From contig JACQON010000032.1 in assembly GCA_016202545.1 (NCBI GenBank), forward strand, positions 37,453 through 101,452: a stretch of 64,000 nucleotides of DNA, given 5' to 3'. A program made the position numbers and the translations under genes. The notes below the pieces were generated by a model. That model saw only the letters and a list, made by a program, of their open reading frames with translations, was not told the origin of the DNA and ran no database searches. The DNA is from Chloroflexota bacterium (GTDB lineage Bacteria; Chloroflexota; Dehalococcoidia; Dehalococcoidales; JACQON01). Below are positions 16,269 to 23,002 of this stretch, piece by piece; within the stretch, counting starts at the first letter, position 1, and each line of letters opens with the position of its first letter.

Positions 16269-16479
16269 GATGCGTCTCCCCTCAGAAAATCCACGGATTA
16301 CGGTTGACAGCAGAGCCGGATTCCGGCGCTGCGGCAGCTACCTGCGTCTTACTGGCTACCTGCGGTTATGCTATAGTAATCCCTAGGTAATGAGCGACCT
16401 TTAATTTGTAGAGACAGAGGCTGCCTGGCCATCTATAACAGCCGTGATGGCACACAGGCTTTTGAGAAGGGCGCTGCCG

Positions 16480-17769: not shown

Positions 17770-18112
17770 CCGCCGCTATACTGTTGGGCTCAGCAGGTAA
17801 CAGGATTTCTATCATGGTGGGGTTGGGGTGACAATAGGTGGAATTTTCGAGGATAGTTCTGAAGCTGCCTTGACTTTGAATATCTCCGTGATACGCCATA
17901 ATTACTCATATTATATGCCCAAAAATTGTAAATAGAGCCCTGTCGATATATACTATTATCGTAGTTATTCTCTGGTAGTAGCTTATACTGCTGAAAGATT
18001 CGCCTTCAGTTTCCTCCACTTGGAGTTGCCTCTCAGGTCCAGGGATTATTCTCAAACTCCAGGGAAGGATAATGGCGCGTTTGCCGAGTGCATTTTACGG
18101 AAAGGATATACC

Positions 18113-19189
18113 ATGGGGTTAAGTTGTGGCCTGATAGGCTTACCATCTTCCGGGAAAACAGTTATTTTCAATGCTGTCACGGCTGCCGGGGTATCCAGTT
18201 ATAATGGTTCCGAGATGAACCGAGCGGTAGTCTATGTGCCTGACCAGCGCCTTAACCGGCTTACAGAAATTTACCGGCCACAAAAGGTGGTGCCGGCCAC
18301 GCTGGAAGTTGTTGATATCTCTGGGGTTAAGGTTGGCCATCAAAGAAATGAACATGGCTCCAGGTTGCTCGGGTATATTAAGGACGTTGAAGCATTGTTG
18401 CACGTAGTACGTTGCTTTGAAGATGATAGTATTCCCTTTGAGTATGAGACGATAGACCCGGTACGGGATATCGAGACGGTTGACCTGGAACTGATGGTTG
18501 CTGATAGTAACACGCTTGAAAATAAGATTAAACGTCTGGCAAAGAAGGTGCGTGCAGGAGATAAGGACGCTATTCGGGACACTGCCAATTGCGAGAAGGT
18601 GTACACTGCTATTCAGCAGGGCACCCCGGCGCGCAAGCAAAACCTGAGTGTTCAGGAACTAGCCAGTATCCGTGAATGTAATCTTGCCTCGTTAAAACCG
18701 GTATTGTATATCGCTAATATTAAATCCATAGCGGATGCAGGTAATCACCATGTAAAGGCACTGGAACGGATTGCCAGTGACGAGGGGGCGGAAGCAATTG
18801 TTATCTGCGGTAAGGATGAAGCTGATATCAGCCAACTGAGCTTGGAGGAACGGCAGGAGTTTCTACGGGAACTCGGGTTAAAAGAGTCATCAATGGAGCG
18901 CCTCCTTAGCGCCGCCTATAGAATGCTGGGACTGATAAACTTCTTTACAACCGGGGAGGATGAGGTGCGTGCTTGGACTTGCCGGAAGAAAGATAAAGCC
19001 CCGGTAGCCGCTGGCAAGATTCACACTGATATGGAAAAGAGTTTTATTCGCATGGAGGTTATCCGCTATGAAGACCTTATCGAGCTTGGCAGTGAGGCGG
19101 CGATATCTAAAGCAGGTCGCCAGCGTCTTGAGGGCCGTGACTATGAGGTACAGGACGGCGACATTGTAGCGGTGCGCTTCAGCAAGTAG
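18113..19189 (+). CDS. ychF: Divergent YchF/Obg-family ATPase
   Basis: GLIGLPSSGKT, VPDQRL, HVVRCFED, FFTTGEDEVRAWT, AGKIHTD, DGD; start at MGLSCG after AAGGA. Confidence 0.9.
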   Translation: MGLSCGLIGLPSSGKTVIFNAVTAAGVSSYNGSEMNRAVVYVPDQRLNRLTEIYRPQKVVPATLEVVDISGVKVGHQRNEHGSRLLGYIKDVEALLHVVRCFEDDSIPFEYETIDPVRDIETVDLELMVADSNTLENKIKRLAKKVRAGDKDAIRDTANCEKVYTAIQQGTPARKQNLSVQELASIRECNLASLKPVLYIANIKSIADAGNHHVKALERIASDEGAEAIVICGKDEADISQLSLEERQEFLRELGLKESSMERLLSAAYRMLGLINFFTTGEDEVRAWTCRKKDKAPVAAGKIHTDMEKSFIRMEVIRYEDLIELGSEAAISKAGRQRLEGRDYEVQDGDIVAVRFSK

Positions 19190-19229
19190 CAGCGAGCATA
19201 ATTCCGCAAACAGCAAACTGGGCCACTCT

Positions 19230-19290
19230 GGACAGTTCCCGGGCTTCTGTTTGAGAAGAAGCAATTGATTGCGGCATTGTAACAGTTACT
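19230..19290 (+). repeat. Degenerate direct repeat, copy 1 (coding remnant TVPGLLFEKKQLI)
   Basis: GGACAGTTCCCG...TGTTTGAGAAGAA shared with 19890-19950. Confidence 0.75.
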
Positions 19291-19395
19291 CGTATCCACT
19301 CCTGGTTCACCGTCTTAGCGGTACTGATAGTAGTTCATCTGCATCTATGATATAATTATGGCCGAAGATAAATCTCGCTGAAGGCGGAGGTCATT

Positions 19396-19659
19396 ATGGG
19401 TGTGCTTACTGACTATGTTAATCAAGCTTTATCACAGGCTGTTTATGATAAGCTGGAAGATGGTACTTTCTCCGGACGAATCCCTCCATGTGCTGGAGTG
19501 GTAGCCTTCGGTGCTACTTTAAAGGAGTGTGAAGCAGAGTTACGCTCCACTCTAGAAGACTGGATTTTAGTAGGTCTTAAGCTGGGTCATCCCTTGCCGG
19601 TAATAGGCGGCATAGACCTTAACAAGGAGCCACAGCGTGAGCCAGTGGAGGCGGTGTAA
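19396..19659 (+). CDS. hicB: HicB-family antitoxin (short form)
   Basis: EDGTFSGRIP..GVVAFGATLKEC...LP fold; SD GGAGG. Confidence 0.85.
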   Translation: MGVLTDYVNQALSQAVYDKLEDGTFSGRIPPCAGVVAFGATLKECEAELRSTLEDWILVGLKLGHPLPVIGGIDLNKEPQREPVEAV

Positions 19660-19870
19660 ACGACGGGACTTTATCCGCTGTCTCCAGAAACTTGGCTTCG
19701 ATGGACCCTACTCCGGAACAAGACATCAGTTCATGGTCTATAAACAACATCGGCTGGCTATTCCCTCCAACTCCGAGTATTCAGTGCCTCAGCTACGAAT
19801 GATGCTAAACGAAGTAGAACAAATCATAGGGCGCCAAATTTCGGCTGAAGAATGGGCACATCTGCGATAG
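19637..19870 (+). CDS. hicA: HicA-family toxin
   Basis: LQKLGF...GTRHQFM...IP; overlaps hicB. Confidence 0.85.
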   Translation: MSQWRRCKRRDFIRCLQKLGFDGPYSGTRHQFMVYKQHRLAIPSNSEYSVPQLRMMLNEVEQIIGRQISAEEWAHLR

Positions 19871-19889
19871 GTATCCGTTGCAAAACAAG

Positions 19890-19950
19890 GGACAGTTCCC
19901 GAACTCTTGTTTGAGAAGAAACAACTAATACCAGAGATACAGCGGTTGCT
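19890..19950 (+). repeat. Degenerate direct repeat, copy 2 (coding remnant TVPELLFEKKQLI)
   Basis: Aligns to 19230-19290 without gaps. Confidence 0.75.
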
Positions 19951-20037
19951 TATTTCACAGATGGGACGGGCTAATCCGTGTAATGTTATAATTAAAATAT
20001 GACCCGGGGATGAATTCTAGCCCTAAGGAGGAAAACA

Positions 20038-20438
20038 TGCAAACTGCAGAAGAACAATCAATTATAAAGGAAACTGAAGCCTTTGCTGAAGTTTGGAGCA
20101 AGGGAGATGCGAAAGCAGCAGCATCCTTCTATACCGAGGATGCTACACGGGTTGGGGCTTTCGGTGATGTACAGCACGGTCTGGCTGAAATCGAAGCCGC
20201 GTATGATAAGCTTTTACATCAAACGATGCCAGGAGCAAAGGTTAAGCAGGAGCGTGGTAGTGTCCGGTTCCTTTCTTCAAGACTTGCGGTATGGCAGGGT
20301 GGGATTGAGATTATTCCTCCTAGCGGCGGCCCATCGTTGAAAGGTCACGTAGTTCAGGTAATGAAGAAAGTAAAGGGACGCTGGCTCATTTTTGAGGCGC
20401 ATCCTAAAATATTCCCGCCCCCGCCAGCGACAAGATGA
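20038..20438 (+). CDS. SnoaL/NTF2-like (SgcJ/EcaC-type) protein
   Basis: WSKGDAKAAASFYTEDA...G..EI...GRWLI; SD TAAGGAGG. Confidence 0.8.
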
Positions 20439-20492
20439 CCTCAGCCGACACGAAGAGCGTTGCTTCAATTCTGCTATGCTTTTGCGAGCGGT

Positions 20493-20577
20493 TGGTGGGG
20501 AAGGGGGGACTCGAACCCCCACGCATCGCTGCACTGGATCCTAAGTCCAGCCCGTCTGCCAGTTCCGGCACTTCCCC
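20493..20577 (-). tRNA. tRNA-Leu (anticodon TAG), CCA encoded
   Basis: GGGGAAG/CTTCCCC acceptor stem, CTGGA-CTTAGGA-TCCAG anticodon arm, long variable arm, GGTTCGAGTCC T arm. Confidence 0.97.
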
Positions 20578-22650: not shown

Positions 22651-22740
22651 CACCTGGTTGCAGAAATAGGTGTATTACCCTGAAAATACCTTCATTTTCA
22701 TCCTTCGTGGTGCCGCTGGCAAGCGACATGGAGGATTGTT

Positions 22741-23002
22741 ACGAAATAAGATATTTTGGTGAACCCATCCCCCTTTGTCCCCCTTCCCTTGGGGAATTGG
22801 TGAAGGGAAGGGGGAGTCAGTATAAAGAGGGGGCGAAGCCCCCTCTTTCAAAATCTCCCCTTCTCCTTGCGAGGAGAAGGGGTTCACCCTGAAGGCTCAC
22901 CCTGAAGGGGATTAAGGGGATGAGGTCACACTTCTAAGGAGCGCTTAGATTGGAACATTTTCATCCTTTGTGGTGCGTGTTGTCCAGCATGATAGATTCT
23001 GA
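22741..23002 (+). repeat. Long modular palindromic element, family A (full copy)
   Basis: Similar along its length to 53196-53425 and, inverted, to 24969-25245. Confidence 0.85.

Follow-up and report, generated by a model that had tools for sequence, protein, structure and literature searches.

What builds a row of small gene units against the 3' end of a tRNA gene when no full-length recombinase gene lies on the same contig? The locus that raises this question lies in the window, by which we mean the whole stretch of 64,000 nucleotides that was analyzed. It is an array of about 2.7 kb, made up of three units of 0.6-1.4 kb next to a tRNA-Leu(TAG) gene. An earlier note on this DNA described it as an integron-like array of captured genes. 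The array consists of scars from the tails of large serine recombinases (LSRs) and works like the accretion of CIMEs, not like an integron. Its features are the following.

17815-17875, plus strand: site 1, a probable att junction with core GG at 17819-17820, plus a decayed recombinase tail (T2)
17926-17954, plus strand: promoter-like site in unit 1 (consensus match only); the region is kept in genomes G021, G242 and G268
18113-19189, plus strand: ychF ATPase of the second clade, cargo of unit 1 (TIGR00092 above cut-off)
19216-19300, plus strand: site 2, a probable att junction with core GG at 19220-19221, followed by tail T1, in which the frame is broken by a stop and the GAAC motif is changed
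19396-19659, plus strand: HicB-type antitoxin (UPF0150), cargo of unit 2
19637-19870, plus strand: HicA-like toxin, cargo of unit 2 (weak Pfam match, E=0.0017, below cut-off)
19876-19960, plus strand: site 3, a probable att junction with GC as its core (19880-19881), followed by a T1 tail whose frame is open
20037-20438, plus strand: SnoaL/DUF4440 (SgcJ/EcaC family) protein, cargo of unit 3
20460-20498, minus strand: arm B, a half-site on the right that meets the tRNA at the GG core; a conserved junction family
20493-20577, minus strand: tRNA-Leu(TAG), the probable target, whose 3' end would supply an attB-type half-site

The tRNA was the sole match in an Rfam search. The array has a GC content of 0.479 compared with 0.564 and 0.569 in the 10-kb flanks, and all its genes read on the plus strand; the description of the cargo as ychF, hicBA and a SnoaL-like gene in AT-richer DNA is correct, with a weak match for hicA. 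Promoter-like sites, again consensus matches only, stand ahead of ychF and hicB. The 18 nt at 17815-17832 match the end of the tRNA (20493-20510) in 15 positions; this is the only such match in the 64 kb, with 0.14 expected by chance. The sites at 19216 and 19876 keep the register of the tRNA, yet match its 18 nt in only 9 and 10 positions. After this register the two sites have 44/66 nt in common. A comparison of 22 codons gave 7 identical, 8 synonymous and 7 non-synonymous pairs, the latter including one stop. Farther to the right in the window (22690-22980), a short repeat on the right of the endonuclease III gene had high depth from many other contigs.

The earlier note had taken the shared repeat for a decayed coding tail, displaced from a serine recombinase whose att site lies inside the gene, as in the ssrA islands of Dehalococcoides. 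A wider search bears this out. T1 is present in 10 copies in the genome, so the repeat is not local, and one of these copies terminates an ORF of 123 aa. The last 99 residues of this ORF, which span the junction between body and tail, served as a query against 301 genomes of the order and matched 114 of them. Among the matches listed most were body-only, in frames of 400-670 aa, or tail-only, in short frames with the last 30 residues. Full-length LSR ORFs of 541-542 aa with a T1 end were found in two loci (L355, L356). A further LSR that ends in T1 (L095), one that ends in T2 (P0005) and the C19 protein of the genome all contain the resolvase, recombinase and zinc-ribbon domains. The sites are hence joined in frame to a protein with the complete LSR domain set and, at the level of the family, the recombinase gene overlaps att with its 3' end. 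The sequences at 19216 and 19876 are the last ~25 codons of such recombinases, severed from the rest of the gene, and we consider it very likely that the repeats at the sites of the array are LSR tail scars.

The coding signature of the tail is evident in 109 ungapped copies. Of 493 single-base differences between codons that lie outside the search pattern, 358 are synonymous (73% versus 28% expected), and stops occur in 6/109 tails in frame compared with 79 and 108 in the other two frames. This coding-type conservation indicates that the tails derive from working genes. Most of the loci listed with the tail pattern (73/78) are labeled Chloroflexota or Dehalococcoidia; 5 are labeled otherwise. 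From such relatives the host was taken to belong to Dehalococcoidia.

The three sites do not share one tail family, and site 1 is not a duplicate of the tRNA-Leu end. Over 36 nt it matches the column majority of a second tail family, T2, in 29 positions and the tRNA in only 17. The E-value of site 1 in the genome (0.012) comes from a T2 model that includes its homologue in G242; for this reason we relied on the match to an unrelated site in L109 (30/36). T2 terminates the LSRs L056 and P0005, and about nine further copies are present in the genome. Other LSR bodies run into the ends of tRNA-Ala, -Ile, -Val or -Leu instead of T1; of 30 loci examined, 11 have a body that continues into the end of tRNA-Ala or -Ile, and one of the two full LSRs of the genome reads into tRNA-Val(TAC). 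An LSR remnant adjoins tRNA-Leu(TAG) in G025, and the 15 nt before the tail at site 2 are identical to the end of the tRNA-Ile(GAT) that lies beside an LSR in L054. At a single register, LSR tails, LSR bodies, arm B and tRNA ends occur in a wide variety of pairings. A separate LSR subfamily (G000 C2:32375-33985, L032) has the core CC in gene direction, and its members end in non-tRNA targets or in T2.

A fourth half-site, which had escaped the earlier note, lies against the tRNA. The 40 nt next to its left end are a member of a family, arm B, which in other genomes precedes tails as well as tRNA-Glu, -Ala and -Leu (10 junctions, score 37 compared with a null 95th percentile of 24). An LSR that reads in the opposite direction meets arm B at the same core in L075 and obtains an open C-terminus from it. 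Arm B of the window matches the end of this ORF in 31/39 nt, while the next best position in the window gives 25/39. From the family score, the junction in L075 and the 31/39 match we infer that arm B is a half-site of the LSR system. The one ORF in L075 suggests that it is possibly the tail of an oppositely oriented LSR, although it may instead be a target arm; arm B was the C-terminus in 0 of 167 other LSR-type proteins. Because the innermost unit keeps this right-hand half-site, the simple picture in which each unit is a scar plus its first cargo is not supported. The same design of T1, cargo and arm B recurs in L075, L120, L126 and L154. Sites 2 and 3 have no recognizable left arm.

A second arm, arm A, is a short palindrome and occurs in 83/363 genomes. 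In 30 independently fetched loci it stood directly before a called tRNA in 12 cases, a tail in 3 and a tRNA-like end in 4 (the last judged by eye), never with an integrase within 1.5 kb. The idea that arm A is a reversed LSR tail was dropped, as no such tail was found in four foreign loci or 167 proteins. The arms are also not ordinary trailers of tRNA-Leu; only weak matches (E 0.4-0.5) occurred in 2 of 24 unselected tRNA-Leu(TAG) loci, and none of these 24 had a clear tail within 1.5 kb. A gene cluster for oxidative stress (L353 in G271, L354 in G046; 83-85% identical) ends at arm A, which stands before a tRNA-Met-like end in one family and before tRNA-Ala(GGC) in another. In the window, the left flank of site 1 (17796-17814) matches the arm A palindrome in 9/12 positions with the right spacing (background 0.23%). 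Farther left, a weak T1-like piece (16312-16350, E=0.55) lies ahead of a transporter of the CitMHS/ArsB-like type, which has a patchy distribution (14/301 genomes). The flank and this piece may represent an older fourth unit. Synteny via the transporter gave no support; in G016 it is 15 kb away from tRNA-Leu with core genes and no scars in between.

The four joints share a layout of the serine-integrase att type, in which four bases are followed by a two-base core, another ten bases and a motif. The arm on the recombinase side in L138 mirrors T1 around GG with 10 nt on each side. The motif GAAC is found at positions 21-24 from the core in T1, at 22-25 in T2 and at 16-19 in the T-loop of the tRNA. 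For the A118/LI type of serine integrase, Rutherford et al. (2013, PMC3783163) describe a two-base core, an element site of ~50 bp and a distal zinc-domain motif, which occupies 16-24 in attP and is shifted by 5 bp toward the centre in attB. The sites studied here resemble this type, as far as described there, in the two-base core, the mirrored element arms and a motif ~5 bp nearer to the centre in attB, all of which are known from sequence alone. They differ from it in that the site is located in the coding end of the recombinase and that several tail types and targets are interchanged. Because the mirrored arm in L138 and the GAAC spacing agree with the 5-bp shift between attP and attB, the crossover is likely at the GG of TGGT-GG, judging from symmetry and the A118-type rules. 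The identity between sites and tRNAs is highest at the T-G-G columns (0.88, 0.92, 0.85; n=26), is only 0.35-0.58 halfway along the 10-nt stretch and goes up again in the last two columns (0.81, 0.73). This rise, together with the exact 16-nt tRNA end (up to the T-loop) that precedes the tail at some far junctions (L086, L094), would fit a crossover on the T-loop side instead of GG.

The exact tRNA ends also speak for a different origin, in which the joints are ordinary scars of tyrosine integrases, i.e. tRNA 3' ends displaced by a crossover in the T-loop, and the tails were brought in by later rearrangement; the 15 nt of tRNA-Ile at site 2 point in the same direction. This origin is very improbable in view of the finding that none of 57 bounded units in our survey contains a piece of a tyrosine recombinase, that the common junction 16-mers could not rebuild the T-stem and that LSR bodies continue into the tails without a shift of frame.

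Recombination by serine integrases depends on cores that match. At site 1 of the window GAAT stands in place of the motif, site 2 has GGGC together with a stop, and site 3 has a GC core. Since core or motif is altered in all three, the inner sites are likely weak or dead, and the copy in the window would now be largely fixed. Domain searches located none of the full-length recombinases of the genome on the contig of the array, in agreement with the earlier statement that an integrase is missing in cis. A further search found only an LSR-like piece of 173 nt, 48 kb away from the array. The tmRNA is on a different contig.

How mobile is the cargo? The ychF gene of the window belongs to a second clade, which was found in 49/301 genomes at 58% or more, while the rest of the matches listed were at 43% or less. 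It is the only ychF in an assembly that is 88% complete. Its five closest checked relatives, from four families, are 83-91% identical, compared with 60-66% for their main Mfd matches, and each of these genomes also has a canonical ychF. Genome G242, which is from another family, shares positions 17815-19183 at 84.8%; the homology starts exactly at site 1, and the array with ychF in G242 ends in arm B and tRNA-Ala(GGC). Two tRNAs, tRNA-Leu(TAG) and tRNA-Ala(GGC), have the ychF block behind them, and its left edge is identical at both. T2 follows ychF in 3/3 loci with at least 88% identity and downstream DNA, and in 0/25 with at most 83%; the right edge of the block is T1 in the window versus T2 in G242, G021 and G059. 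Since the second-clade ychF adjoins tRNA-Ala(GGC) in G185, it was likely acquired as flanking DNA of a tRNA-Ala array. The occurrence of the block behind a different tRNA in a distant relative makes it likely that recombinase-free blocks move between these groundwater bacteria. We also considered ychF as a native neighbor of tRNA-Leu(TAG). The canonical ychF directly adjoins the 3' end of this tRNA in L016 (G027) and L018 (G040), but the gene in the window is from the other clade, and the idea was rejected.

Mobility is supported for one unit of the array, that of ychF. For units 2 and 3 no bounded counterpart was found elsewhere; a tail or arm was present at 0/6 hicB loci and 0/64 SnoaL loci. 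Six other genomes have a T1 unit at tRNA-Leu(TAG), each with different cargo; a relative from the same family was not among the genomes searched. The assembled contigs of four runs of one study, in which the same strain is present, contained no empty site and no excised circle, and contigs drop rare forms. Sites 1 and 2 lie together on one of the contigs, and a joint that cleanly skips a unit was not seen. Two joints between tail and tRNA in these runs have short sides and filler of unknown origin; they likely come from other organisms.

To see how general such units are we surveyed 77 long loci out of 106 found; one duplicate and the loci with short flanks were left out. They contain 113 tail sites, with the next site in view for 57 and out of view for 56. 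The 57 bounded units have a median length of 1548 bp, and 22 of them end at a tRNA, with eight tRNA species represented. Some arrays have unusual ends. A larger array (G000 C23:23635-27713 and C20:10308-10484; L044, L045) has three T1 units and arms A and B of the tRNA-Glu(CTC) type. It ends in a tRNA-like 3' piece, not a gene, and has a 200-nt right end in common with a real tRNA-Glu locus. Two others (G000 C1:80182-82783 and C2:53258-54760) end at mimics of the T-loop away from called tRNAs, one of them at the 3' end of an FtsK-like gene. Tiny units of 83-124 bp between two tails occur in L088, L100, L105, L121 and L145; several end in a mirrored T-loop motif, and they may be docking sites carried by the elements.

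These data can be used to weigh two further histories. The array could be the product of decay in place, in which full islands with their own recombinase were reduced to the tail and one or two genes and no recombinase-free block ever moved. The coding-type conservation of the tails, the altered sites in the window and the 7/113 tail sites that still have an LSR piece directly upstream are what such a process would leave behind. Deletions should however often leave pieces of the recombinase, and an LSR piece is present in 1 of the 57 bounded units while 56 have none. Decay also does not account for arm A or B at the end of 15 of the 22 units that terminate at a tRNA, a count for which the arm models were trained on the same loci, nor for arm A directly before a tRNA, tail or tRNA-like end in 19 of the 30 fetched loci, nor for one unit end with arm A that is common to two different targets. 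Together these results make pure decay in place unlikely.

At the other extreme the units, each with a tail, one or two genes and arm A or B, could be dedicated non-autonomous elements, which LSRs encoded elsewhere in the genome cut and re-insert in trans, doing the job of an integron with other chemistry. The stereotyped size (median 1.5 kb) and ends, the recurrent design of T1, cargo and arm B, the varying cargo at tRNA-Leu(TAG) and the ratio of about 20 scars to 2 full LSRs in the genome are in favor of such live cassettes. In the window the mismatched core at site 3, the altered motif at site 2 and the left arms that cannot be recognized at sites 2 and 3 argue in the opposite direction, as does the lack of circles and empty sites in the contigs of the four runs; a directionality factor was not identified. 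We therefore doubt that the array is a set of live cassettes.

Among known systems the ssrA islands of Dehalococcoides are from the same bacterial class. McMurdie et al. (2011, PMC3146451) describe for them DsiB, a CcrB-like serine recombinase of ~540 aa with a 3' end that overlaps att, and tandem islands of which 15 lack the integration module and were read as mobilisable in cis; a circular form of the vcrA island is cited in PMC10117805. The overlap with att and the tandem islands without integrase recur here. Unlike those islands, as described there, the present units target at least eight tRNA species and not ssrA, with tRNA-Leu(TAG) as the target in the window; they measure 0.6-1.4 kb and have conserved tails with a coding signature and recurrent right-hand arms. 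The six-gene integration module of the ssrA islands is too large for the 2.7-kb array and its units. CIMEs, in the account of Guedon et al. (2017, PMC5704250), have lost their integration genes, kept their att sites and lie in tandem at tRNA 3' ends. The array is like them in having no integration genes and att sites at both ends, with the inner sites altered. It differs in that no intact element is in tandem in the array and that a serine family uses tRNA ends, which are given in that account as targets of tyrosine integrases, while IMEs with serine recombinases insert inside dispensable genes. Growth at tRNA ends with partial tRNAs and recombinase remnants is also known from HPR1 of Dehalococcoides with its tRNA-Ala fragments (McMurdie et al. 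2009, PMC2764846) and from the tycheposon islands of Prochlorococcus, where most integrases are tyrosine integrases (910/937; bioRxiv 10.1101/2020.12.28.424599). The boundaries described for these are tRNA fragments, and here they are recombinase tails. Our literature search yielded no description of conserved LSR tails or arms at tRNAs of Dehalococcoidia; the supplements of McMurdie et al. may show some.

An integron consists of IntI and of promoterless cassettes that are bounded by attC and driven by Pc. The array is similar in its row of small units with one or two genes in one orientation, including a toxin-antitoxin pair. It differs in its recombinase chemistry and in promoter-like sites inside the units, and there is no IntI beside it; the 8 PF00589 matches in the genome are all on other contigs. 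It also has no sign of attC; around the SnoaL gene a simple test for inverted core sites gave a negative result, and LSR half-sites account for the boundaries. The comparison with an integron is hence not upheld. Among the relatives of the SnoaL protein 2/42 pass a strict test as integron cassettes (shuffled mean 0.23, maximum 2). By eye, attC-like repeats seem to stand on both sides of the relatives in L277, L281, L283, L290, L297, L301 and L329.

It is likely that the four joints represent hybrid att sites of an LSR family in which the crossover occurs inside the last codons of the recombinase's own gene. Each insertion at the 3' end of tRNA-Leu would leave the tail of the recombinase gene at the far edge of the insert. 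Symmetry and the A118-type rules suggest that the recombinase recognizes GAAC, which occupies half-site positions 21-25 in the element and 16-19 in the T-loop of the tRNA, and the presence of this motif in the T-loop would explain why many tRNAs can be used. The inserts would have been stacked serially with subsequent loss of the recombinase bodies, and blocks bounded by att sites would have been carried on by a neighboring or distant LSR, through mobilisation in cis or action in trans. We give this whole history, from serial insertion at tRNA-Leu to body loss and onward transport by other LSRs, slightly better than an even chance.

A broader reading, which we put forward tentatively and still think rather improbable, is an exchange across the order Dehalococcoidales. 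A few LSRs with relaxed specificity would read the acceptor-end/T-loop pattern of many tRNAs and move two-armed, recombinase-free mini-cassettes in trans. The left arms would be spare C-termini that complete the bodies landing beside them, and mimics of tRNA ends would let arrays grow away from real tRNAs. If true, the function of an integron would have been built from serine chemistry.

With these results the mechanism of the ssrA islands, by which dehalogenase genes are spread in Dehalococcoides, is extended across the order to a minimum of eight tRNA genes. T1, T2 and arms A and B are short markers that outline small accessory units which would escape island finders based on integrases, and such a block takes even a ychF gene from one family to another. 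In our judgement, a family of serine recombinases able to use many tRNA ends, with a predictable att geometry, could become an integration tool for a group with few genetic tools.
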